Sequence record: PP175015.1
Direction: 5' to 3' (one strand)
Origin: Escherichia phage UE-S5a
DNA length: 64,000 bases
The position numbers and the translations under genes are program-made. Shown here one piece after another: positions 1-14,798 of this stretch. Positions within the stretch are counted from its first letter, which is position 1; each line of letters opens with the position of its first letter. The notes beneath the pieces are model-generated. The model did no database searches. It had not been told where the DNA came from and was given only the letters and a program-made list of their open reading frames with translations.

Positions 1-259
1 TATCCTTGCAGAATTCTTCAATACTTTTCTTACGCAGAGTCTCAGTCATAGCTGTCTCCTCTGCCAGTTTATTAACAAAGGTATGCATTTCTAATTTAGT
101 ACGGATGGCTTGTTTCTCTGCCATAGTACTTACATATGAATTAAGCATACCTACTGCTTTAGTTGCTGTACCGAATGTATCTGCAACAGTAGTAGCAGCT
201 GAGTTAACAGTACCAAGTAAAGTTCCTGCGGTCATACGTACAGTAGCTTGAGTAGTCAT
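1..259 (-). CDS. hypothetical protein (N-terminal part only; ORF runs off window start)
   Basis: ATG at 259-257 on minus strand preceded by GGAG; frame stays open to position 2; absent from ORF track only because no stop lies inside the window. Confidence 0.4.
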   Translation of the reverse strand, partial: MTTQATVRMTAGTLLGTVNSAATTVADTFGTATKAVGMLNSYVSTMAEKQAIRTKLEMHTFVNKLAEETAMTETLRKKSIEEFCKD

Positions 260-647
260 GATGATAGCTCCAATAGTTGATGATAGGACGACATGTCCAT
301 AACATGCGGAGCATGTGTAACGTGTAAGGTGGGGTAGGGTAGTGGCTACACCGTCAACATACCGGGGGGGCTAGTTGAGTGTAAGGGTGTAGCCCCAGCC
401 ACAACACTGCTGCTGTATATAGCTATCACAATTTTGACATGCAAAAATATTATAGGCACTATCTCTATAAGCAGATAACTTTGAGGTACTAACATGAAAG
501 ATGGTTGGGGTAATTACAATCCTACAGACCCTTAGAACTGGCTTCACTTTATTGCCTGTGCCTTCGCTATAGGATTCATAGGTATTGTACTCTTGTCACC
601 GGTTCTGCCTTATTTATAAATATTATGAGAAGGTATATATCTACCCT

Positions 648-920
648 CTATTTAGTTCTATATAACATCTTCTCTGCTCTATGCCCATTAACTGCTAAGA
701 AGTAGCATGGGCCAGATACATCGGATACCCTATCCCATGGTTCTAGTTTTATGAAGTTAACTATCATATTTCTAAGTAAGCACTCGCCTCTTAACCAGTG
801 ATAGTCTATATCGGAGTGAACATATACAGGTACATTGGGAATATTGTTACATATCCAATTCCATAGTATACCCTCTCCTACATGTAACCTTCCCATATCT
901 GATAGGAAATATAATCTCAT
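648..920 (-). CDS. hypothetical protein
   Basis: 90-aa ORF, tightly packed with neighbouring minus-strand genes (stop/start 920/922). Confidence 0.4.
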   Translation of the reverse strand: MRLYFLSDMGRLHVGEGILWNWICNNIPNVPVYVHSDIDYHWLRGECLLRNMIVNFIKLEPWDRVSDVSGPCYFLAVNGHRAEKMLYRTK

Positions 921-921
921 G

Positions 922-1251
922 CTAATCCTTATAAGCAGTTAAATAGGAGGAAGGAATCTGGGAGAGGATGTGGTCATAGTAATAGCAATATGCTTCACTA
1001 TTGGCAGAGTTTATAGGCATACCTATGTAGTCAAACGCCCACAAACAGAAATGGTTGAGTTCGTGGATGAGTGTATGTAAAGGTTCCCTAAAGATACCAA
1101 TCAATACTCGATTGCCAGAATAAGAAGTATACCCCTTACAACCATCCAAGTCTGGCTCATGCCCTTTAAGTTTCTTATACTTTTTAATGAAGGTATCCTG
1201 GTCGAATACTACTTCTAACTGTACCGGGTAGGGTGATGTGTTTAGTTTCAT
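922..1251 (-). CDS. small HExxH-motif protein (putative zinc metallopeptidase-like)
   Basis: 109-aa ORF containing LIHELNHF (HExxH) with a downstream Glu; start overlaps stop of upstream gene. Confidence 0.4.
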   Translation of the reverse strand: MKLNTSPYPVQLEVVFDQDTFIKKYKKLKGHEPDLDGCKGYTSYSGNRVLIGIFREPLHTLIHELNHFCLWAFDYIGMPINSANSEAYCYYYDHILSQIPSSYLTAYKD

Positions 1252-1719
1252 TAGAGACTCTCGTCGCTAGATAAATATGAGGTAGAAGGATAGAGGGTAA
1301 TAAGTCTACCAGTAAGGGTAGTTACTACCATAGGTTCACTCTCTGACAATATGTACACACTGGTGTGTTCCGGTATTTCTACGGAATCTACTATCTTAAT
1401 GAATTGGATAGGTTGCCCCAACATTAAGCAAGTACCTATGAACACATCTGCATCTTCACTTGGCTCATACAGGATGGTGGTAACTCTCCCCTTACCTGCC
1501 AGGATATTATCCAATGTATGGTATTTCTACGGAATCTACTATCTTAATGAATTGGATAGGTTGCCCCAACATTAAGCAAGTACCTATGAACACATCTGCA
1601 TCTTCACTTGGCTCATACAGGATGGTGGTAACTCTCCCCTTACCTGCCAGGATATTATCCAATGTATATGGAGACAAATAGCAAGTAGTAGCAAAGCTAC
1701 TAAGGCAATACAGATGCAT
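1251..1719 (-). pseudogene. GroES-like co-chaperonin gene split into two ORFs (1507..1719 and 1251..1514) by a 148-bp tandem duplication
   Basis: Both ORFs encode the same LDNILAGKGRVTTILYEPSEDADVFIGTCLMLGQPIQFIKIVDSVEIP segment; C-terminal ILSESEPMVV resembles the GroES C-terminus; duplication length is not a multiple of 3. Confidence 0.4.
1372..1667. repeat. exact tandem duplication, 2 x 148 bp (1372-1519 and 1520-1667)
   Basis: Two 148-nt units compared base by base and found identical; flanks differ. Confidence 0.9.
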
Positions 1720-3753: not shown

Positions 3754-5335
3754 GTTAATTAAACAGGAACTGGATGAATGGCTGGACCAGGTGGACTACT
3801 CCCACCTTAATTCATCTAACTATGTTCCTAGTCAGTTTGCTCTTACCTTTGCCAACTTTATTAAGTTGGTTAATGGCAAAGAAGGTGAATCCAACAAAAC
3901 ACCTCCAGTTCACTTGAAGATGTTGGATAAGATGATTAGCCCGAACCAGTATGTAGTTAACCTGTGTTTCCGTGGTGCAGGTAAAACTGCTGTGTTCATG
4001 GAGTACTTTACTTTGTTCCTGGCAGTGTTTGGTCATTTACCAAGCCTGGGTAAGGTAGAAGGAATGATTTACGTATCTGACTCAATGGATAACGGTGCTA
4101 AGTCTGCACGTAAGAACATTGAGTTCCGTTACAAGAATAGTGAGTTCCTTCAGCAATGGATACCTGAGGCTACATTTACAGATAACCTTCTGGAGTTCCG
4201 TAATGTAGAAGGACATCGACTTGGTGTTAAGTTGTTTGGTGCTAAGACAGGTCTTCGTGGTACGAAGATATATGGTAAACGTCCAACACTCTGTGTACTG
4301 GATGACTTGATTAGTGATGGTGATGCTAACTCCAAGACAAGCATGGAAGCTATTAAGGATACCGTCTATAAAGGTGTGAACCATGCTCTTGACCCAACCC
4401 GTCGTAAAGTAATTTTCAATGGTACTCCCTTTAATAAGGAAGACATTATCATTGAAGCAGTTGAGTCTGGTGCATGGGATGTCAACGTATGGCCTGTATG
4501 CGAGAAGTTCCCCTGTAGCAGGGAAGAATTTCAGGGTGCATGGGATGACCGTTTCTCTTATGACTATATCAAAGCCCAATACGATATGGCAGTTAAGACG
4601 GGTAAGCTGGCAGGCTTCTATCAGGAACTTATGCTTCGTATTAGTTCTGAAGATGAGAGACTGGTTCAGGATAGTGAAATTAGGTGGTATAGCAGACAAC
4701 AACTATTAAGGATGAAGTCCTGCTACAACTATTACATTACAACTGACTTTGCTACTTCGGAGAAACAGACCAGTGACTACAGTGTCATTTCAGTTTGGGC
4801 TTATAGTTCTAATGGAGATTGGTTCTGGGTTGATGGTGTGGCTAATCGTCAGCTTATGGATAAAAACTTTGATGACTTATTCCGTCTGGTTCAGGAATAC
4901 CAACCACAAAATGTTGGGGTCGAAACCACAGGTCAACAAGGTGGATTCATCTCACTCCTTCAAAAAGAAATGATTAACCGTAATGTCTTCTTTAACTTTG
5001 CATCCTCTGAAGGTGGTAAGCCAGGCATACGTCCTGTAACCTCTAAGCTGTCACGCTTTAACCTGGTAGTTCCATGGTTCAAAGCTGGTAAGATGTACTT
5101 CCCGGAAGAGTTGAGAGATTCAACTATTATGGGTTTGTTCATGGGCCAGATTAAATTAGCTACCATTAATGGAATCAAAGGTAAGGATGACTGTATTGAT
5201 ACTATCTCTATGCTGGGTTATCTCAATCCCTGGAAACCACAGGCAGGTATGACTATGGTGGATAACAAGGGTGACCCGATGTGGGACGATGAAGAAGAAG
5301 ATAGTGTTAACCCCCTACGTTCATATATTGTGTGA
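3746..5335 (+). CDS. terminase large subunit
   Basis: ORF 3725..5335; Walker A-like RGAGKT, ATPase plus nuclease architecture of about 530 aa; likely start ATG 3746 (MSELIKQ) with GAGGA RBS. Confidence 0.8.
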   Translation: MSELIKQELDEWLDQVDYSHLNSSNYVPSQFALTFANFIKLVNGKEGESNKTPPVHLKMLDKMISPNQYVVNLCFRGAGKTAVFMEYFTLFLAVFGHLPSLGKVEGMIYVSDSMDNGAKSARKNIEFRYKNSEFLQQWIPEATFTDNLLEFRNVEGHRLGVKLFGAKTGLRGTKIYGKRPTLCVLDDLISDGDANSKTSMEAIKDTVYKGVNHALDPTRRKVIFNGTPFNKEDIIIEAVESGAWDVNVWPVCEKFPCSREEFQGAWDDRFSYDYIKAQYDMAVKTGKLAGFYQELMLRISSEDERLVQDSEIRWYSRQQLLRMKSCYNYYITTDFATSEKQTSDYSVISVWAYSSNGDWFWVDGVANRQLMDKNFDDLFRLVQEYQPQNVGVETTGQQGGFISLLQKEMINRNVFFNFASSEGGKPGIRPVTSKLSRFNLVVPWFKAGKMYFPEELRDSTIMGLFMGQIKLATINGIKGKDDCIDTISMLGYLNPWKPQAGMTMVDNKGDPMWDDEEEDSVNPLRSYIV

Positions 5336-5341
5336 GGAACC

Positions 5342-6052
5342 ATGCAAAAATTATCGGAAGTATACCGTGGCTTGGCACTAAGTACCTTGAAGGGTACTGG
5401 TGCAGTCACGGATGACAGATTGGGTATTGAGCCTGATAGTAAGCCTGAGATACTGGCAGCTATTAATGAAGGATTGGTTCGACTGCATAGTCGTTTCCCT
5501 CTCAGAACTAATAGTTGTATTGTGGAGATGAAAGAAGGGCGTACCGATTATCCTCTTCAATCCAGATATGCTTACTCCAGATTTACTAAGCCCACTCTTG
5601 AGGTTCAGTATCCATACATCATGGATGGGTTCATGAAACCTTTCCAGGATGATGTTATTAAAATCTTAAATGTATTTGATAACTCAGGGAACCGACGTAG
5701 ACTGAACGATGATTCGGACCCTCGTGCTATCTTCACTCCACGGCCTGATACTATTCAGTGTATGCGTCCTCGACACTTTGAGGCACTTAACGTAATGTAT
5801 CAAGCCAAGCACCCAGTGCTTACGGGTGATGAAGAACAGGAAGTTGATTTAGCTGATACGCTAATGACGGCACTTCATAACTGGGTGGGTTATCGTTACC
5901 ACACCGGTTTGAATACTCCGGAAGCTAACGCTAAAGCAGCAGAGCATCTGCAAACATATGAAAGCATCTGTGGTGAGGTTGTTGATTACGACCTGGCTAA
6001 TGGAAGTATTTCAATTACCGAAACTAAATTTGAACAACGAGGATGGCGATGA
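5342..6052 (+). CDS. hypothetical virion-associated protein
   Basis: 236-aa ORF inside structural operon between terminase and tailspike. Confidence 0.4.
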   Translation: MQKLSEVYRGLALSTLKGTGAVTDDRLGIEPDSKPEILAAINEGLVRLHSRFPLRTNSCIVEMKEGRTDYPLQSRYAYSRFTKPTLEVQYPYIMDGFMKPFQDDVIKILNVFDNSGNRRRLNDDSDPRAIFTPRPDTIQCMRPRHFEALNVMYQAKHPVLTGDEEQEVDLADTLMTALHNWVGYRYHTGLNTPEANAKAAEHLQTYESICGEVVDYDLANGSISITETKFEQRGWR

Positions 6053-9000
6053 ACGCACATACCCCCTTTGATGCAAATCAGGATTGGACCAATCCATATT
6101 GTCATAACAGTTCCAATGACCAAATGGTGGATGCACTGCTTGGTAATGCTTACCATGTGGTTCGTACTGTGTACTGCAACCTGGGTAATCTTAAACTCCT
6201 GTATGATTTCCTGAACCAGTATGGGATGGTCATCGGTGTAAACTCTGAAGAGGAATTGAAGGCATTATCCACGCAGGTTAAATATTCCCGTATCTACGGT
6301 TTCTCCCGTGCAGGTGACCGGCAGGTAACTGATTACTTGTACGTAGAAGGTGATCGTACTGGCATCATCCCAGATGACTCAGAAGCAACTGGTTCGTGGA
6401 TTACTGTTGCTACTTCTGGTTCCAATGGTGGTGGTACTTCTTCCAGTGAAGGTGCTTATATTCCTTGGGTATACAGCAATGGTTCTGCTACTGGTGGGGA
6501 AACCACAATCAACGTACCAGATGGTACGGTGGGTGTACCTTTCATTATTGTTAATGGCGACATGCAGTATGTAGGTCGTGGATTTGAGTTCAACGTAGAC
6601 AGCCTGTCCGTAACTCTGGCTCAACCTTTAGAGGAAGGAGATGAAGTAGTATTCCTTCTGACTGGTGTTCCTGCTGTACCGGATAATCCTAACATTAATG
6701 ACTGGATTCAGATCAATTGGTTGTACAACAATGGTGCTGCTGTAGGGGGTGAGCAGGTTATTGCTATTCCGTATACCTTCCAGTCTATTCCGGCTGTGTA
6801 TAAGAATGGTCTTCGTTTGTATAAAGGATTAACTACTGAGTCTTATACTGCTGACCCAGATAACCAACGTATTTTTCTTACCGAACCACTGACAACCAAT
6901 GATCGTTTGATAGTACAGATTGGTGGTGAAGCACGAGTATTGGAAGCAACAGATCGTACTCTACAGGAAGTGGCTCGTGCGGCTAATGTAAAAGATTCTG
7001 AGGTTATTCTCAGTACTAATACAGTACAATCCTTAAATAACAAAAAAGTTATTTATAATCCCGATAATCAGCAGATTTACGTTATTCCAGAATTACCAAC
7101 TAATGTGTATATATCCAGCGTAGTTGGTAATATCCTTACATATACTCCAGGTAACATTCAGGTTGAGTTACTAACCAAAAAAGAAACTGACCAAAATACC
7201 CTATGGCGTAATCAGGGAGATGTCCGTGGTTGGGGTGTTAAAGGGGACGCTGTGCATGATGATACAGTAGCATTAACGAACGTATTAAACGACACACCAG
7301 TTGGACAAAAGATTAATGGCAATGGGAAGACATATAAGGTCACATCCTTGCCTGATATTAGTCGATTCGTCAACACTCGTTTTGTTTATGAGCGTATTCC
7401 TGGTCAGCCGCTTTATTATGCCTCTGAAGAATTTGTTCAGGGCGAGCTTTTCAAAATAACGGACACCCCTTATTACAATGCGTGGCCACAGGATAAAGCG
7501 TTCGTTTACGATGATGTTATTTACTGCCCGTTCATGGCTAGTGATAGACATGGGGTCAGCAGGCTGCATGTATCCTGGGTTCGTTCAGGGGATGACGGAC
7601 AGACCTGGACAACGCCGGAATGGTTAACCGACCTACATCCTGATTACCCGACAGTTAACTACCACTGTATGAGTATGGGGGTGATGCGTAATCGTCTCTT
7701 TGCGATGATTGAGACACGTACTTTAGCATCTAACGCACTGGTGACCTGTGAGATATGGGACCGTCCTATGTCCCGTAATTACCATCCGACAGGTGGTATC
7801 ACAAAAGCCGCTAATCAGCCTGTGGCTGTAATTACTATTCCTGACCATGGATTGTTTGCCGGAGATTTTGTTAACTTCTCGAACTCTGGGGTGACTGGTG
7901 TTTCGGGGAATATGACTGTAACTTCAGTTATTGACCGCAACACATTTACTGTCACCACGCCAAATCAACAGGAATCTGACCAAAATAACTCTACCAAAGT
8001 CTGGCATATGGGGACATCGTTCCACCAGTCACCTTGGCGTAAAACCAACCTTGGACTGATTCCCATGGTTACCGAGGTTCACAGTTTTACCGCCATCAAT
8101 AATGATTCATTTATGATGGGATATCACCAGGGTGATGCTGCTCCACGTGAAGTTGGTATGCTGTATTTCCCGGATGCATTTAACAATCCTGGGCATTATA
8201 TAAAACGACGTATCCCTGCTGAATATGAGCCAGATGCGGCAGAACCCTGTGTTAAATATTTTGACGGTGTTCTTTATGTTGTAACCCGTGGAACTCGGTC
8301 GGATCGTCTGGGTAGTTCACTACATCGTAGTAACGATTTGGGTATATCCTGGCAATCATTGAGGTTCCCGAATAATGTCCACCACTCCACCCTGCCATTC
8401 GCTAAGGTAGGAAACGAACTCATTCTTTTTGGAACAGAACGTGCGGACAACGAGTGGGAAGCAAACGCACCCGACCAGCGATATTTCAGTTCTTACCCGC
8501 GAACGTTTTACACACGAGTGAACTTAGACACCTGGAATCTGGATAATACTCAGTGGGTGAATATCACTGACCAGATATATCAGGGTGGCATTGTCAACTC
8601 TGGCGTTGGTGTTGGCTCAGTGGTTGTTAAGGATAGTTATATCTATTACATGTTCGGTGGGGAAGACCATCTGAACCCCTGGACATATGGAGATAACTCA
8701 TCGAAAGACCCATTCAAATCAGATGGTCATCCATCAGATTTGTATTGCTACAAAATGAAGATTGGTTCAGACAATCGTGTTTCCAGGGATTTCAGATATG
8801 GTGCTGTACCTGACAGAGCTGTCCCCGTGTTTTTTGATACAAATGGGATTCGCACTGTTCCTGCTCCAATGGAATTTACAGGAGATTTGGGTTTAGGTCA
8901 TGTGACCCTTAGAGCCAGCACCAGTAGTAACATTCGCTCTGAAGTTTTAATGGAAGGTGAGTATGGGTTTATCGGGAAATCTGTACCGACTAATAACCCA

Positions 9001-9696
9001 GCAGGGCAGCGCATCATATTTTGCGGGGGAGACGGAACCAGTTCTTCTACTGGTGCACAGATTACGCTTTACGGTGCGAGCAACACAGCTTCTCGCAGGA
9101 TAGTTTACAACGGAAATGAACATCTGTTTCAGGGTGCTGATGTTAAGCCTTATAACGATAACGTCATTGCGCTTGGTGGACCAAGTAACCGTTTCACCAC
9201 TGCATACCTCGGAAGTAACCCTATTGTTACTTCTAACGGGGAGAAGAAAACAGAGCCGGTAGTTTTTGATGATGCTTTCCTGGATGCCTGGGGTGACGTT
9301 CACTACATCATGTACCAGTGGTTAGATGCTGTTCAACTGAAAGGCAATGATGCTCGTATTCACTTCGGGGTTATTGCTCAACAAATTCGTGATGTATTCA
9401 TTGCACATGGTCTGATGGATGAAAACAGTACGAATTGTCGTTATGCTGTTCTGTGCTATGACAAGTATCCACGGATGACCGATACGGTATTTTCACACAA
9501 TGAAATCGTTGAACACACTGACGAGGAGGGTAATGTCACTACTACGGAAGAACCTGTATACACCGAGGTGGTTATTCATGAAGAGGGTGAGGAGTGGGGT
9601 GTTCGGCCTGACGGAATTTTCTTTGCTGAAGCCGCTTATCAGAGAAGAAAACTGGAAAGAATCGAAGCCAGACTTTCTGCTCTTGAACAGAAGTAA
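6049..9696 (+). CDS. tailspike / tail fibre protein with pectate-lyase-like beta-helix and C-terminal intramolecular chaperone (peptidase S74-like) domain
   Basis: About 1215 aa; GDVRGWGVKGD motif; C-terminal FDDAFLDAWGDVHYIMYQW...RIHFGVIAQQI chaperone signature; ORF track start 6043. Confidence 0.7.
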   Translation: MNAHTPFDANQDWTNPYCHNSSNDQMVDALLGNAYHVVRTVYCNLGNLKLLYDFLNQYGMVIGVNSEEELKALSTQVKYSRIYGFSRAGDRQVTDYLYVEGDRTGIIPDDSEATGSWITVATSGSNGGGTSSSEGAYIPWVYSNGSATGGETTINVPDGTVGVPFIIVNGDMQYVGRGFEFNVDSLSVTLAQPLEEGDEVVFLLTGVPAVPDNPNINDWIQINWLYNNGAAVGGEQVIAIPYTFQSIPAVYKNGLRLYKGLTTESYTADPDNQRIFLTEPLTTNDRLIVQIGGEARVLEATDRTLQEVARAANVKDSEVILSTNTVQSLNNKKVIYNPDNQQIYVIPELPTNVYISSVVGNILTYTPGNIQVELLTKKETDQNTLWRNQGDVRGWGVKGDAVHDDTVALTNVLNDTPVGQKINGNGKTYKVTSLPDISRFVNTRFVYERIPGQPLYYASEEFVQGELFKITDTPYYNAWPQDKAFVYDDVIYCPFMASDRHGVSRLHVSWVRSGDDGQTWTTPEWLTDLHPDYPTVNYHCMSMGVMRNRLFAMIETRTLASNALVTCEIWDRPMSRNYHPTGGITKAANQPVAVITIPDHGLFAGDFVNFSNSGVTGVSGNMTVTSVIDRNTFTVTTPNQQESDQNNSTKVWHMGTSFHQSPWRKTNLGLIPMVTEVHSFTAINNDSFMMGYHQGDAAPREVGMLYFPDAFNNPGHYIKRRIPAEYEPDAAEPCVKYFDGVLYVVTRGTRSDRLGSSLHRSNDLGISWQSLRFPNNVHHSTLPFAKVGNELILFGTERADNEWEANAPDQRYFSSYPRTFYTRVNLDTWNLDNTQWVNITDQIYQGGIVNSGVGVGSVVVKDSYIYYMFGGEDHLNPWTYGDNSSKDPFKSDGHPSDLYCYKMKIGSDNRVSRDFRYGAVPDRAVPVFFDTNGIRTVPAPMEFTGDLGLGHVTLRASTSSNIRSEVLMEGEYGFIGKSVPTNNPAGQRIIFCGGDGTSSSTGAQITLYGASNTASRRIVYNGNEHLFQGADVKPYNDNVIALGGPSNRFTTAYLGSNPIVTSNGEKKTEPVVFDDAFLDAWGDVHYIMYQWLDAVQLKGNDARIHFGVIAQQIRDVFIAHGLMDENSTNCRYAVLCYDKYPRMTDTVFSHNEIVEHTDEEGNVTTTEEPVYTEVVIHEEGEEWGVRPDGIFFAEAAYQRRKLERIEARLSALEQK

Positions 9697-9880
9697 TAAA
9701 CAAAACCATTTTGCCATTAAGTTGGTGGAGGGGTGGATACGGTATTAGTTATGAGAAATCTCCCGTACTTAAGTGTGCATTTCTTCGTCGGCAATTGGAA
9801 AAATTTAAATAATCTTCCAATGTGTACATAAGGATATATTCGGCAAGGACGCCATTAACCAGAAAAACAAAGAGGTTCTT

Positions 9881-12235
9881 ATGAACGAAATGTTCTCACA
9901 AGGTGGTAAAGGCTCCACTGGTATTCTTACCAACAAACAAGCCATTGCCCGTAAGTTTGGTGTTAAGCAGAATGAGGTTGTTTACTTTGCTGTAGGTGTA
10001 GACTTAGGGGAATACAAGGTCATTTATGATAAGACTACCCAGCGAGCTTACTCATTACCTGCAGACCTTGGTTCAGGGGTTACTGCTGTAAGCCTTAATA
10101 CTGCCGGTGTGTTAGTTCACTCTACTGGTAATGTTGACCTGGGTGCACTAGCTGTTTCACGAGGAGAGTTTATAACAGTCCCTGGGTCCTTCTCTTTGGG
10201 TTATGAGATTAAAGTAAAGAATGAATGTCTTGAATACCAGGGTGGGTTGTATCGATGGGATGGCGCACTGCCAAAGGTTGTAGATGCTGGGTCTGTTCCT
10301 GATATTGGTACAGGAAAGTGGCTGAGCGTCGGTGATGCAGCCCTGCGCAGCCAGATTTCAGACCCGGATGGTGCGTCCAGTTACCCTGAATTGCAGATGG
10401 CAAGATGGCGTGATGAGGGTGATGTTCGAGGCTGGGGTGCTAAAGGGGATGGTGTAACAGATAGTACGGAGAATATAGCTGCTTCACTAAATTCTCAAAA
10501 AGCTGTCGTAGCATCAGACGGTGTATTCTCTAGTTCTGGTATTAATAGTAATTACTGTAACTTAGACGGTAGAGGCAGTGGTGTACTAAGTCACCGTTCA
10601 AGTACAGGTAACTACTTAGTATTTAACAATCTACGCTCAGGTCGCTTAAGTAATATTACGGTAGAAAGTAATAAGGCGACCGATACCACTCAAGGGCAGC
10701 AGGTATCTCTTGCTGGTGGCAGTGATGTTACTATAAGTGATGTTAATTTCTCAAACGTTAAGGGCGCTGGTTTCAGTTTAATCACATACCCTAATGATGC
10801 ACCCTCTGATGGGCTTATGATTAAAGGCATTCGAGGTAGCTACTCCGGCTATGCTACTAATAAGGCGGCTGGATGCATACATGCTGATTCCTCGGTTAAC
10901 TCCCTCATAAATAACGTCATTGCTAAGAACTACCCTCAGTTCGGGGCTGTAGAACTGAAAGGTACAGCCAGTTATAACATAGTCAGCAATGTTATAGGGG
11001 CAGACTGCCAGCATGTAACTTACAACGGTACAGAAGGGTCAATAGCTCCCTCTAACAACCTTATCAATGGGGTAGTGGCTAATAATCCTAAATATGCAGC
11101 GGTTGTTGCAGGCAAAGGTAGTACCAACTTAATCTCAGATGTGCTTGTAGATTTCTCAATCTCTGACGCTAGTCAGGCTCACGGTGTTACAGTAGAAGGC
11201 TCTGATAACGTAATAAGCAATGTGCTTATGTCAGGATGTGATGGTACTAACTCTTTAGGGCAAGCTCAAACTGCTACAATTGCGCGCTTTATAGATACAG
11301 CTAATAACAACTATGCGTCTGTATTTCCTAGCTACAGTGCTACAGGTGTTATTACTTTCGAATCAGGTTCTACCCGTAACTTCGTAGAGGTAAAGCATCC
11401 GGGAAGGAGAAACGACCTTCTCAGTGCTACTGGTACTATTGAAGGTGCAGTTACTATTGACGGCACTAGTAATAGCAACGTAGTGCACGCACCTGCCTTA
11501 GGACAGTACATAGGTAGTATGTCAGGTCGGTTCGAATGGCGGATTAAGTCCATGTCACTTCCGTCAGGCGTTCTTACCTCGGCTGATAAATACAGAATGC
11601 TTGGGGATGGTGCTGTGTCATTAGCTGTAGGCGGGGGTACTTCTTCTCAAGTTCGCCTATTTACTTCTGATGGTACTTCTCGGAAAGTATCACTCACCAA
11701 CGGTAACGTGCGTCTTCCTACCAGTAGCACAGGTTATTTGCAGTTAGGTTCTGATGCAATGACCCCAGATAGTACTAATACATACGCATTAGGTTCCGCA
11801 AGTAGAGCATGGTCTGGCGGTTTTACTCAATCAGCATTCACTGTTGTCTCAGATGCTAGGGATAAAACAGAGCCTCTTAATATCTCAGATGCTTTACTGG
11901 ATGCTTGGTCTGAAGTTGACTTTGTGCAGTTTCAGTACTTGGACAGGATTGAGGAGAAGGGTGCAGACTCAGCCAGATGGCACTTTGGTATCATCGCTCA
12001 GCGAGCTAAGGAGGCTTTCGAACGTCACGGCATAGATGCACATCGCTATGGCTTCCTGTGCTTCGACAGTTGGGATGATGTATATGAGGAAGATGCCAAT
12101 GGCTCTCGTAAACTGATTACACCAGCAGGTTCCCGCTACGGTATTCGTTACGAGGAAGTACTGATATTAGAAGCTGCGTTGATGCGGCGTACTATTAAGC
12201 GTATGCAGGAAGCATTAGCTGTTATGTCTAAGTGA
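9881..12235 (+). CDS. second tailspike (putative depolymerase) with C-terminal intramolecular chaperone domain
   Basis: 784 aa; RDEGDVRGWGAKGDGVTD beta-helix motif; C-terminal SDARDKTEP...LDAWSEVDFVQFQY...WHFGIIAQR chaperone signature; AAGAGG RBS. Confidence 0.7.
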   Translation: MNEMFSQGGKGSTGILTNKQAIARKFGVKQNEVVYFAVGVDLGEYKVIYDKTTQRAYSLPADLGSGVTAVSLNTAGVLVHSTGNVDLGALAVSRGEFITVPGSFSLGYEIKVKNECLEYQGGLYRWDGALPKVVDAGSVPDIGTGKWLSVGDAALRSQISDPDGASSYPELQMARWRDEGDVRGWGAKGDGVTDSTENIAASLNSQKAVVASDGVFSSSGINSNYCNLDGRGSGVLSHRSSTGNYLVFNNLRSGRLSNITVESNKATDTTQGQQVSLAGGSDVTISDVNFSNVKGAGFSLITYPNDAPSDGLMIKGIRGSYSGYATNKAAGCIHADSSVNSLINNVIAKNYPQFGAVELKGTASYNIVSNVIGADCQHVTYNGTEGSIAPSNNLINGVVANNPKYAAVVAGKGSTNLISDVLVDFSISDASQAHGVTVEGSDNVISNVLMSGCDGTNSLGQAQTATIARFIDTANNNYASVFPSYSATGVITFESGSTRNFVEVKHPGRRNDLLSATGTIEGAVTIDGTSNSNVVHAPALGQYIGSMSGRFEWRIKSMSLPSGVLTSADKYRMLGDGAVSLAVGGGTSSQVRLFTSDGTSRKVSLTNGNVRLPTSSTGYLQLGSDAMTPDSTNTYALGSASRAWSGGFTQSAFTVVSDARDKTEPLNISDALLDAWSEVDFVQFQYLDRIEEKGADSARWHFGIIAQRAKEAFERHGIDAHRYGFLCFDSWDDVYEEDANGSRKLITPAGSRYGIRYEEVLILEAALMRRTIKRMQEALAVMSK

Positions 12236-12312
12236 GTAATACTGGTACGGTTAGATCAGTAGAGTTGGTTAACAGTAGCCTACGTACTACCAGGCTATTA
12301 CTTATCTAGGTA

Positions 12313-12343
12313 TAAAACCCCGCTCAGGCGGGGTTTGTTTTTA
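12313..12343. terminator. bidirectional rho-independent terminator
   Basis: AAACCCCGC-tcag-GCGGGGTTT stem-loop followed by GTTTTTAT; A-rich on the other side. Confidence 0.65.
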
Positions 12344-12360
12344 TCTATTAATAATATTTC

Positions 12361-12987
12361 TTATATAGAGTTTACTGTTTGCATTGCCCTAATTGATACT
12401 GCTGTTAGGGTAATTACTTGTCCTGAGATATTAAACATACCTAACTGAATACCGTCTACCATGAAAGGGTCAGTTGAACCAAGTGTGTAAGTAGCCAGTA
12501 CGTTATCTCTGTTAGCAATGTCTGTACCCTGTACTTTAACACTAGCATCTGAACCTACTATCGTAATTCCATTGGTTCGTCTTGTTTGTGTTCTCCATTC
12601 CCTTGCTGTACCTGCACCACCTGCAATAATTCCTGATATACGAACACTGAACATTACCTGGGTATTCCTGGTTCTAATGGGGAACTTAAGATTTCCTTCT
12701 TCAATTGTTAGTGCTGCTGTACCTCCAGGTGATTTAGTTATCCCTGGTAATGAAAAGTAATTGAACCAGGATTGGTCATTTACTGCCTGGCTCCCGGTCC
12801 ATGTATACAAGTCCAGAAGAAATGTGTCTTCTAACTCTGTTGGTGGGAAAGGTAGTAGTTCTGGGGGGATCTCTGAGATGTTATTAGCAGAAACTATTCG
12901 TTCCCCATAACTTCCCACGACCAACAATCCCCCCTTCATTTTGCACACAACATCCCTACCACTTTGGAAAATATCTTTAATAGACAT
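12361..12987 (-). CDS. hypothetical protein encoded antisense to the structural operon (moron-like)
   Basis: ORF track 12361..13014 begins at GTG; ATG at 12987 has GAGGT RBS 7 nt upstream; Gly/Thr-rich beta-type 208-aa protein. Confidence 0.45.
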   Translation of the reverse strand: MSIKDIFQSGRDVVCKMKGGLLVVGSYGERIVSANNISEIPPELLPFPPTELEDTFLLDLYTWTGSQAVNDQSWFNYFSLPGITKSPGGTAALTIEEGNLKFPIRTRNTQVMFSVRISGIIAGGAGTAREWRTQTRRTNGITIVGSDASVKVQGTDIANRDNVLATYTLGSTDPFMVDGIQLGMFNISGQVITLTAVSIRAMQTVNSI

Positions 12988-13111
12988 AGTTACCTCGCAG
13001 TTGATACCAGACACTATGTCTGGATGTATCCCATCATACTAAGTATTATCTAAGAGTCATCTTATGATACGACCCTATTGGGGTTCTTAACTTTACAACT
13101 ACGGTAATATT

Positions 13112-13441
13112 ATGAATGAATCGGGCGAACTGCTTCTAGTCAGACTGGAGGAACGATTGAAGACTCTGTTTGAGAATCAGACGAGAGACAGACAGGACCG
13201 TGAGAAACTGGAGGAAACTCTGGGAGAATTACGGGATTCAATCAATGACATAGGCAATAGACTAAAAAATGTGGAGGATAGCTTAGCTAAGAATGAACCT
13301 ACTATTGAAGAGTTCATCACCATTAAGCATAAAGTTGTTGGTGCTGGAATTTTTGGTAAGTGGGTATGGGCTGGAGCAGGTGCAATTATTGGTGTATTGG
13401 CTGCTGCAAGACGGGAGATATTCGCATGGTTCGCAGGCTAA
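13112..13441 (+). CDS. coiled-coil protein with C-terminal transmembrane segment (lysis-associated candidate)
   Basis: 109 aa; charged helical N-terminus, C-terminal GAGIFGKWVWAGAGAIIGVLAAA hydrophobic segment; directly upstream of holin-like gene. Confidence 0.4.
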   Translation: MNESGELLLVRLEERLKTLFENQTRDRQDREKLEETLGELRDSINDIGNRLKNVEDSLAKNEPTIEEFITIKHKVVGAGIFGKWVWAGAGAIIGVLAAARREIFAWFAG

Positions 13442-13686: not shown

Positions 13687-14311
13687 ACAGAAACTTGCTG
13701 CAAAAGGTGGTGCAGTGGGAGGGGTTATCGCTGCTATTCTGGGGGCAGTGTTCTATATGGAAGGAGGTTATGTAAACAATCCTCGTGACCCAGGTGGGGA
13801 AACTAATCATGGTATTACCCAATCAGTAGCTAAGACTCATAAAGAAGTTCTGGCTACTGAGTATGGTTGGGATGGTTCTATGAAGGGTTTATCTAAAGAG
13901 ATGGCTGCTGAGATATACATTGATGACTATGTACTTAAACCTAACTTCGTAGCCTTCGCTGATATATCTCCTGCTGTAACGCATAAGCTAGTAGATGCTG
14001 GTGTTAATACTGGTGTAACCCGTCCTGCTAAGTGGTTGCAGATGTCTCTTAATGAAATGTCACGTAATGGCAAAGACTACCCTAAAATACAGGTTGATGG
14101 TAAAGTCGGTACAAGTACTGTTAATGCATATAAAGCATTACAGAAAAAACGGGGCAAAGTTGCAGCATGTCAGGTAATGATTAAGCTGCTTGATGCTAAA
14201 CAACTGAACCACTATACCTCATTAAACATGCCAGACTTTACGTATGGTTGGGTAGCTAACCGAATAGGCAATGTGCCACTGGAGGCATGTAATGAAGATG
14301 CTAATCTCTAA
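13676..14311 (+). CDS. SAR endolysin, GH108-type N-acetylmuramidase with peptidoglycan-binding domain
   Basis: EGGYVNNPRDPGGETNHGITQ matches the GH108 signature; N-terminal Gly/Ala-rich weakly hydrophobic segment typical of signal-anchor-release domains. Confidence 0.75.
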   Translation: MKAKQKLAAKGGAVGGVIAAILGAVFYMEGGYVNNPRDPGGETNHGITQSVAKTHKEVLATEYGWDGSMKGLSKEMAAEIYIDDYVLKPNFVAFADISPAVTHKLVDAGVNTGVTRPAKWLQMSLNEMSRNGKDYPKIQVDGKVGTSTVNAYKALQKKRGKVAACQVMIKLLDAKQLNHYTSLNMPDFTYGWVANRIGNVPLEACNEDANL

Positions 14312-14798
14312 AGGTTGGCCTTATCTTCTGGTGGTGGTCCTTGGGGCCACCATTTACTTTTGGGGCAATTCCAATGGGCAGTCTACTGTTCAAAAGAAAT
14401 GGGATGCCCAAAAGGTCGAAGACCAAAAGGCAACGCAAAAATTACAGGACAAATACAATGCTCTCCAAAGAAACCATAGTTATGAAGTCGGGTTACTCAC
14501 TTCCCGGTTGCAGACGGCTGAGAGTAATTACGCAAGCGAGCTTGCTCGCGTTAGCAGTGATTACGACAGCCGGATGCAACAGTCTGAAAGACGAGCATCG
14601 GTATATAAACGTCAAGCCGAAGCCGGAACCCTTGAGTGCAGAAGTCTTGCAAGCCATGCAGCCAGACTCGACAATAGTCTTGAAGAAGGCAGACGTTTGG
14701 TTGAAGAACTCCGGGCAACTGTTAGACTCCGTGACAGCCAACTAATTGAGTTGGGTAAACAGATTCAGGCTGACCGTAAACTTTTTGAACAGGAATAA
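14292..14798 (+). CDS. i-spanin (Rz-like)
   Basis: ORF 14271..14798; GGAGG 6 nt upstream of ATG 14292; N-terminal TM ([17 protein letters not shown]) then long charged coiled-coil region. Confidence 0.6.
14482..14745 (+). CDS. o-spanin (Rz1-like lipoprotein) embedded in the i-spanin gene in another frame
   Basis: Internal ATG at 14482 of ORF 14341..14745; signal-like [22 protein letters not shown] with lipobox-like TAGC, followed by Pro-rich segment. Confidence 0.45.
   Translation: MKSGYSLPGCRRLRVITQASLLALAVITTAGCNSLKDEHRYINVKPKPEPLSAEVLQAMQPDSTIVLKKADVWLKNSGQLLDSVTAN

Follow-up and report, generated by a model that had tools for sequence, protein, structure and literature searches.

Shigella phage B2, an N4-like Ithacavirus, carries a 99-amino-acid homotrimeric capsid decoration protein, gp45, which has been seen on the capsid by cryo-electron microscopy and detected by mass spectrometry (PMC11654681). 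This Ithacavirus "head fiber protein" has a solved structure (PDB 9d82); phi29 gp8.5 and T4 Hoc have been regarded as nonessential, outward-facing capsid appendages that are easily lost, and on the tail side, the Sf6/HS1 tail needle has a TNF-like knob (gp9 C-terminal domain; PDB 3rwn and 4k6b). Here, we describe a gene on the minus strand of a 64,000-nucleotide stretch of Escherichia phage UE-S5a (PP175015.1), which we call the window. Between positions 12000 and 13500 the window is 100% identical to Escherichia phage UE-M3 (PP301342.1), where the gene is annotated as UEM3_012 (protein WWE95502.1). It encodes a domain-shuffled combination of a capsid head-fiber/decoration-type anchor and a TNF-like fiber knob. 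Our best explanation, which we hold tentatively and at somewhat less than even confidence, is that the product is an accessory trimeric virion-surface fiber, most probably docked on the capsid via its gp45-type anchor.

UE-M3 belongs to the genus Gamaleyavirus (Schitoviridae, Enquatrovirinae). It is a virulent N4/G7C-like coliphage whose isolation host was a uropathogenic E. coli strain, and the abstract of its source paper reports that lysogeny factors were not found.

A gp45-type anchor joined to a TNF-like knob

Sequence comparisons indicate that the minus-strand open reading frame (ORF) is a genuine gene under purifying selection in both of its modules. Its product matches PHROG 17779, a family of unknown function, over its full length (E = 4.7e-113; residues 1 to 207 on profile positions 4 to 207 of 208). 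Orthologs that are 91 to 99.5% identical, with the frame full-length and intact, occur in at least 10 phage records; UE-M6, UE-S5b, pSb-1, nithesis, PD38, Bp4, and Uz-1 each carry a full-length ortholog in the same position and orientation, and N4-like phages of Salmonella and Shigella from a different subfamily have homologs that are 52 to 67% identical. Compared with Bp4 and pSb-1, the ratio of nonsynonymous to synonymous substitution rates (dN/dS, Nei-Gojobori) is 0.07 to 0.15 for the whole gene, 0.06 to 0.15 for the N-terminal 52 codons, and 0.08 to 0.15 for the remainder. The original prediction, made from the sequence alone, had allowed that the ORF might lack coding-type conservation; these ratios and the end-to-end PHROG match speak against that. 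Pfam yielded no match for the 208-amino-acid protein or for its B2 homolog, gp46. We found no study of the UEM3_012 gene in the literature, and the papers on Salmonella phage SP-058 and on DSF2 are silent on it.

The N-terminal 49 residues link this protein to B2 gp45. A profile of 13 family members, built without gp45, matched one solved structure in the PDB, 9d82 chain J ("B2 Dec Gp45"; E = 1.9e-8), with profile residues 1 to 48 aligned to gp45 residues 1 to 49; the two share the motif DGKD..K..GG..VVG..GE.ILAAKD.SELP. This was the sole match of the PDB sequence search, which detected no solved relative of the C-terminal domain. Reciprocally, gp45 residues 1 to 46 match PHROG 17779 positions 1 to 45 (E = 3.5e-7), and two further small gp45-like proteins give the same match. 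The other half of gp45 (residues 55 to 99) matches PF11133 at positions 233 to 277 of 277 (E = 3.1e-10), corresponding to the tip of the phi29 head fiber; by this reasoning, the N-terminal half that gp45 shares with UEM3_012 is therefore likely the capsid-proximal anchor. An anchor-only profile, used in a word-indexed search, revealed no new architectures, its matches all being short or frameshifted fragments, so the anchor family appears narrow. Since the anchor is under purifying selection within the Gamaleyaviruses, we argue that it still binds something there. The likeness to gp45, also a small protein of an N4-like phage, ends with these ~49 residues: gp45 continues into its PF11133 tip, whereas UEM3_012 continues into a 154-residue TNF-like knob that has no PF11133 match, and capsid binding has been demonstrated for gp45 only.

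An AlphaFold2 model based on a 52-sequence alignment (mean predicted local distance difference test [pLDDT] score, 89.7; >93 over the β-sandwich) replaced a poor model built from 13 close homologs (pLDDT, 71). It consists, in order, of a short helix, a β-hairpin, a helix, and the knob; residues 55 to 208 form a jelly-roll β-sandwich of the TNF/C1q-like superfamily. The best structural match of the knob is the Sf6/HS1 tail-needle knob (Foldseek E = 1.6e-7), and further matches include the exosporium proteins ExsFA and BxpB and the trimeric TNF-like lectins BC2L-C and PLTL. Among predicted viral structures, the knob matched collagen-repeat, C1q-domain, "Sf6-type knob," minor-tail, and tail-fiber proteins.

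An exhaustive profile search with the C-terminal domain identified 160 relatives. In those longer than the domain itself (about 180 to 900 amino acids), it forms the C-terminal end or stops a few residues short of it, and its N-terminal partners include tail-fiber repeats, collagen-like repeats, and a "head decoration" PHROG together with a GDSL esterase; the last of these fusions is encoded in a P2-like prophage, between lysis and tail-completion genes. Salmonella Uetakevirus PAT1 encodes a 181-amino-acid knob-domain protein between its portal and protease/capsid genes and codirectional with them, while a collagen-like version closes the tail-fiber cluster of Aeromonas phage ZPAH14. These relationships mark the knob as a promiscuous distal head of trimeric virion fibers, found on heads and on tails, with the N-terminal module determining the attachment partner.

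Given the Sf6/HS1 match, we considered whether the product might instead be a tail-associated accessory receptor-binding knob, that is, a third, small receptor-binding protein on the tail or the branched tailspike complex. Homologous knobs do end tail-fiber-like proteins and, in ZPAH14, close the tail-fiber cluster. However, the N-terminal module has a single detectable relative, which belongs to the capsid and is not a tail adaptor, and we found no other anchor-like sequence in the window. Identity to the Sf6/HS1 knob is 15 to 19%, and Sf6 gp9 begins with a plug of the gp26 type and continues into a long trimeric coiled coil, neither of which is present in UEM3_012 according to the model and the lack of Pfam matches. 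N4-like tails also lack a P22-type needle: UEM3_012 is not a tail needle of the P22/Sf6 type, and the GenBank label "tail needle knob" reflects fold-level resemblance only. In addition, the homolog is absent from the published B2 tail reconstruction and mass-spectrometry list. We consider a location on the tail unlikely. As for another GenBank label given to homologs, "protease," we found no match supporting it.

C1q/TNF-like heads such as those of Bacillus BclA and ExsFA/BxpB, viral collagen-repeat proteins, and PRD1 P5 share with UEM3_012 both the fold and a distal position on the fiber, and Aeromonas phages have true sequence homologs of the knob fused to collagen-like repeats. Unlike these collagen-like fibers, UEM3_012 has no shaft, only a linker of ~5 to 15 residues, so the knob would sit near its docking site. 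The lectins BC2L-C-Nt (Burkholderia) and PLTL (Photorhabdus) resemble the knob at the level of fold only (Foldseek E of about 1e-5; target-normalized template modeling score of about 0.65 to 0.69; identity of about 10%). By analogy with them, sugar binding at the subunit interfaces can be imagined, but this is speculation; a lectin-like adhesin that faces outward is a possible role for the knob.

Gene order, loss, and exchange with tailspike cassettes

In the Ithacaviruses B2 and FSL SP-058, the homolog of UEM3_012 (B2 gp46; 52% identical) lies directly downstream of gp45 on the same strand. The portal gene, on one strand, comes first; the holins, lysozyme, spanin, gp45, gp46, and gp47 follow on the other strand, and next are the tail-fiber and tailspike genes, which converge on this opposite-strand block. 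gp45 and gp46 are each followed by a 3′ hairpin of their own, which could allow graded expression. Another decoration gene, UEM3_064 (Hoc-like, Ig-type; the equivalent of N4 gp17), also lies outside the late operon, among replication and nucleotide-metabolism genes on the opposite strand (PP301342.1, 64759 to 65592, minus strand; about 64907 to 65740 in window coordinates, just past the window end). Since gp45 and the Hoc-like gene are both on the opposite strand, minus-strand placement is no argument against a structural role. The original prediction held that same-strand, structural homologs would count against an insulated accessory unit; such homologs exist in part, in the codirectional PAT1 gene near the capsid genes and in the ZPAH14 tail-fiber cluster. 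According to the UE-M3 paper, the UEM3_064 product was detected by mass spectrometry only in UE-S5a and UE-M6 and not in UE-M3 (PMC11927229), which is odd given that ~180 copies per capsid are expected.

Only some Gamaleyavirus records contain the full gene; others contain fragments. ECBP1 and ZQ2, both isolated phages, carry an identical 536-bp deletion (window 12464 to 12999) that removes the ribosome-binding site, the start codon, and ~172 codons; the putative promoter and the palindrome are spared, as are the ~35 codons at the 3′ end. The deletion junction lies at about 3998 to 4001 in ECBP1 (L007) and 4006 to 4009 in ZQ2 (L009); a TCAACTG direct repeat is found close to both breakpoints in UE-M3, and the residual 44-codon frame of ECBP1 is annotated as a hypothetical protein. 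Other G7C-type phages have the same short remnant, VTCCBPA_322 has the gene in two pieces, and P0123 and other database proteins are truncated or frameshifted versions. These comparisons show the gene to be both dispensable and mobile.

Such a patchy distribution fits a head-fiber or Hoc-type accessory protein. It also fits a nonvirion accessory protein of the infected cell, as in the original prediction, which called the gene moron-like and suggested a host-interaction or exclusion function. The repeated loss of the gene, its place on the opposite strand, and its own promoter-like site and putative terminator (Table 1) would agree with an insulated unit of this kind, and the product is not among the listed B2 virion proteins; the promoter is a consensus-level match which, like the hairpin, is conserved in relatives. 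The term "moron" is loosely apt in these respects but not in its implied benefit to a lysogen, because the phage is virulent. Moreover, the fold and all of the homologous architectures are virion-fiber-like, the anchor, a homolog of a structural protein, is under purifying selection, and inspection of the 208-amino-acid protein by eye (no predictor was run) revealed neither a signal peptide nor a lipobox or membrane segment. We therefore regard a nonvirion role as improbable; exclusion is unlikely in particular, as nothing points to it in a protein with a TNF/C1q-like fiber-tip knob and a capsid-decoration-type N terminus.

The loss variants also reveal a connection between the gene and tailspike exchange. 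The tailspike body (window 10175 to 12356) is unrelated among the compared phages, while its flanks are conserved: on the left the N-terminal adaptor of the tailspike (9861 to 10174) and on the right the 3′ end of UEM3_012, from 12357 onward. The 3′ end of the gene thus serves as the right-hand homology arm of an exchangeable tailspike cassette. The 3′ remnant is 90.7% identical in ECBP1, ZQ2, and A221, the last of which is an Ackermannviridae phage of ~153 kb. In A221, both arms flank a tailspike gene (80% and 90.7% identity; window 9861 to 10174 and 12357 to 12636, corresponding to 8613 to 8310 and 6253 to 5975 in A221 [L008]), and codons ~117 to 208 of the minus-strand gene survive without annotation. 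By tblastn, the same fragment occurs in RPN242, PC3, PH4, SKML-39, fGh-Ecl02, and LHE287, including several phages of ~150 kb. The Ackermannviridae fragments look like the scar of a tailspike transfer from an N4-like phage.

This association bears on two of the alternatives. A tail-borne receptor-binding knob gains from it, because the gene abuts and converges on the tailspikes and tailspike cassettes carry its 3′ end along with them, as far as Ackermannviridae. The gene could also be a decaying remnant without protein function, kept as a recombination arm for tailspike exchange: its 3′ 107 to 280 nucleotides persist as 90.7%-identical fragments in phages that lack the gene, and broken copies exist, as noted for VTCCBPA_322 and P0123. 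However, the intact frame in at least 10 records and the low dN/dS over the whole length exclude decay for the full-length copies, and the protein is 52% identical to homologs in another subfamily. We judge this explanation very improbable.

Location and possible role of the product

For the accessory fiber that we favor, we propose the following sequence of events. The gene would be transcribed alone from a σ70-type promoter in the 124-bp spacer, and transcription would stop at the hairpin shared with the tailspike gene. Its 22.5-kDa product would trimerize through the TNF/C1q-like C-terminal jelly roll, and the 49-residue N-terminal module, with which B2 gp45 also begins, would dock it on the particle, so that the knob would project outward on a short Pro-rich linker. 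There, it might act as a low-affinity lectin-like adhesin or have some other surface-contact role that aids infection but is not required. We infer trimerization, presence in the virion, attachment to the capsid rather than the tail, and ligand binding. The capsid side is supported by context: the gp45 neighbor in the Ithacaviruses, the location of the PAT1 gene, and the "head decoration" fusion. The 58% identity of the major capsid proteins of B2 and UE-M3 also speaks for it.

Several points weigh against a capsid fiber. The B2 virion mass-spectrometry table includes gp45 but not the homolog gp46 (PMC11654681), and the main text of the UE-M3 proteomics paper does not name the UEM3_012 product among particle-associated proteins (PMC11927229). 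UE-M3 also encodes the N4 gp17/Hoc-like decoration protein. In N4, domain I of gp17 fills every quasi-3-fold site (PMC11768535), and the capsid positions reported for B2 gp45 are those that the Hoc-like protein occupies in Moo19 (PMC11654681). The docking site may thus be filled already, and the knob protein would have to compete with gp17, bind substoichiometrically, or dock elsewhere. The capsid-proximal position of the shared half of gp45 comes from a sequence match rather than from coordinates, and the anchor part of our model, a monomer model only, is of moderate confidence (pLDDT, 63 to 78).

phi29 gp8.5 and T4 Hoc, which share the proposed role, have folds unrelated to UEM3_012 (a helical fiber and Ig domains, respectively), and the Hoc-like gp17 is a separate gene here. 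A more specific version of the capsid fiber, possible but on the doubtful side, is a plug-in head-fiber system in which a single capsid anchor of ~50 residues carries swappable tips, either phi29-like or TNF-like, the latter being a substoichiometric glycan-binding knob. In such a system, the knob version may compete with or complement the Hoc-like gp17 lattice, and its glycan targets may lie in capsule, mucus, or biofilm matrix; a capsid-borne glycan-binding knob of this kind would account for the exchange of the gene together with tailspike cassettes. We also considered a role as tailspike chaperone and rejected it: the tailspike has its own Peptidase_S74 chaperone domain, and chaperones do not have the fold of a TNF-like knob.

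Locus layout and implications

Between the small terminase gene (3064) and the virion RNA polymerase gene (37047), UEM3_012 is the sole minus-strand ORF in a census of nonoverlapping ATG-started ORFs of at least 90 amino acids combined with the PP301342.1 annotation; the structural operon is otherwise uniformly on the plus strand, as originally predicted. Its predicted place between the second tailspike and the lysis cassette is likewise borne out. On one side is the 784-amino-acid tailspike on which it converges (9881 to 12235, plus strand; Tail_spike_N and Peptidase_S74 domains; annotated as "K5 lyase"), and on the other an N4 gp63-like gene (13112 to 13441), followed by holin, endolysin, and spanin genes. 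The features of the locus are collected in Table 1.

Table 1. Features of the UEM3_012 locus in window coordinates
Feature	Position	Strand	Remarks
Putative hairpin terminator common to the tailspike gene and the converging minus-strand gene	12315..12336	.	9-bp GC-rich stem
3′ end of ORF, tailspike-cassette boundary	12357..12463	.	Sole gene remnant in ECBP1 and ZQ2
CDS UEM3_012 in PP301342.1, PHROG 17779	12361..12987 (including stop)	-	ATG start; 208 aa (amino acids); 22.5 kDa; isoelectric point 5.5
TNF/C1q-like jelly-roll knob, aa 55-208	12364..12825	-	Invariant motif GGAGT.REWRTQTRRT
Short linker, aa 50-54, end of Pro-rich stretch EIPPELLPFPPTELED	12826..12840	-	Least confidently modeled part
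N-terminal anchor module, aa 1-49	12841..12987	-	Homologous to gp45 aa 1-49 (Shigella phage B2)
Shine-Dalgarno GAGGT, 4-nucleotide spacer to ATG	12992..12996	-	Read directly; conserved in Bp4 and pSb-1
Perfect palindrome CCAGACA-CTA-TGTCTGG	13007..13023	.	7-bp stem, 3-nucleotide loop; identical in Bp4 and pSb-1
Putative σ70-like promoter ATGACT-16-TATGAT	13033..13060	-	Consensus match only; identical in UE-M3, Bp4, and pSb-1

The ORF and its ribosome-binding site are as originally described, although the Gly/Thr richness ascribed to the protein is mild (10.1% each). The GC content of the ORF (0.41, versus 0.434 for the window) does not indicate foreign origin. An alternative GTG start at 13014 would add 9 codons (217 amino acids); it lies inside the palindrome and lacks a ribosome-binding site. 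The predicted 97-bp divergent region up to 13112 is correct if this GTG is the start, but the spacer is 124 bp from the ATG at 12987 that gives 208 amino acids.

The hairpin at 12315 to 12336 lies 25 nucleotides beyond the stop of the minus-strand ORF and 80 beyond that of the tailspike, with a T-run on the plus strand and TTTTAT on the minus strand; with U-tracts both ways, calling it a bidirectional terminator is reasonable at the level of consensus. At the other end, the palindrome is directly downstream of the promoter-like site, at or just after the predicted start of the minus-strand transcript, and is possibly a 5′ stem-loop or an operator; it is retained in the deletion variants ECBP1 and ZQ2. 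The whole divergent spacer is 97% conserved in Bp4 and pSb-1, so conservation of the promoter and palindrome says little. We rejected the palindrome, on nonrigorous grounds, as an early promoter of the N4 virion RNA polymerase, because it has a TAG/CTA loop and A-T closing pairs. Two other hairpins, with 6- to 7-bp stems and 3-nucleotide loops (...GC-TCC-GC... followed by [T]ATGGA), are on the sense strand of the early genes, in the likely early (right-end) region: one at window ~303 to 315 (PP301342.1, 73636) and one at PP301342.1 ~72954, outside the window. We take these to be of the N4 virion RNA polymerase promoter type and likely early promoters.

As for the neighbors, the two plus-strand tailspikes, at 6043 to 9696 and 9881 to 12235, carry the annotations endosialidase (K1 capsule) and K5 lyase, respectively; this pair would give dual K1/K5 specificity on an N4-like chassis, recalling the SP6-like phage K1-5. 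The Peptidase_S74 domain of the second is a C-terminal intramolecular chaperone domain. The N4 gp63-like gene, which overlaps the holin start, is labeled differently among records ("tail needle protein gp26" or "tail length tape-measure protein"). Its 109-amino-acid product has a coiled coil and, toward the C terminus, a hydrophobic segment (GAGIFGKWVWAGAGAIIGVLAA). It falls in PHROG 5211, whose function is unknown, and its Pfam matches are weak and limited to coiled coils; rather than a tail protein, it would seem to be a component of the lysis cassette anchored in the membrane. Within the Rz-like gene (14271 to 14798), an out-of-frame plus-strand ORF (14341 to 14745) with a lipobox-like ...LAVITTAGC... 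corresponds to the o-spanin of the Rz1 type that one expects inside the i-spanin gene; UE-M3 has no separate annotation for it. Window coordinates equal PP301342.1 coordinates plus 148, because the window contains a 148-bp tandem duplication near 1372 to 1667 (window 1 to 1519 corresponds to PP301342.1 1 to 1519, and window 1520 onward to PP301342.1 1372 onward). The last 401 bp of PP301342.1, a direct terminal repeat, are identical to window 1 to 401.

The most useful new points are that the gene is linked to the B2 decoration protein and that it lies at a tailspike-cassette boundary: its 3′ end is a marker for the exchange of these cassettes, which extends to transfer between N4-like phages and Ackermannviridae. 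The GenBank labels "tail needle knob" and "protease" prove to be weak. If the product is on the capsid, then therapeutic-candidate K1/K5 coliphages would have a second, tail-independent surface-binding module, with possible effects on how the particles adsorb, how well mucus or capsule retains them, and how immunogenic and stable they are, and UEM3_012 would be the only known paralog of the B2 decoration protein, with one anchor bearing different heads.

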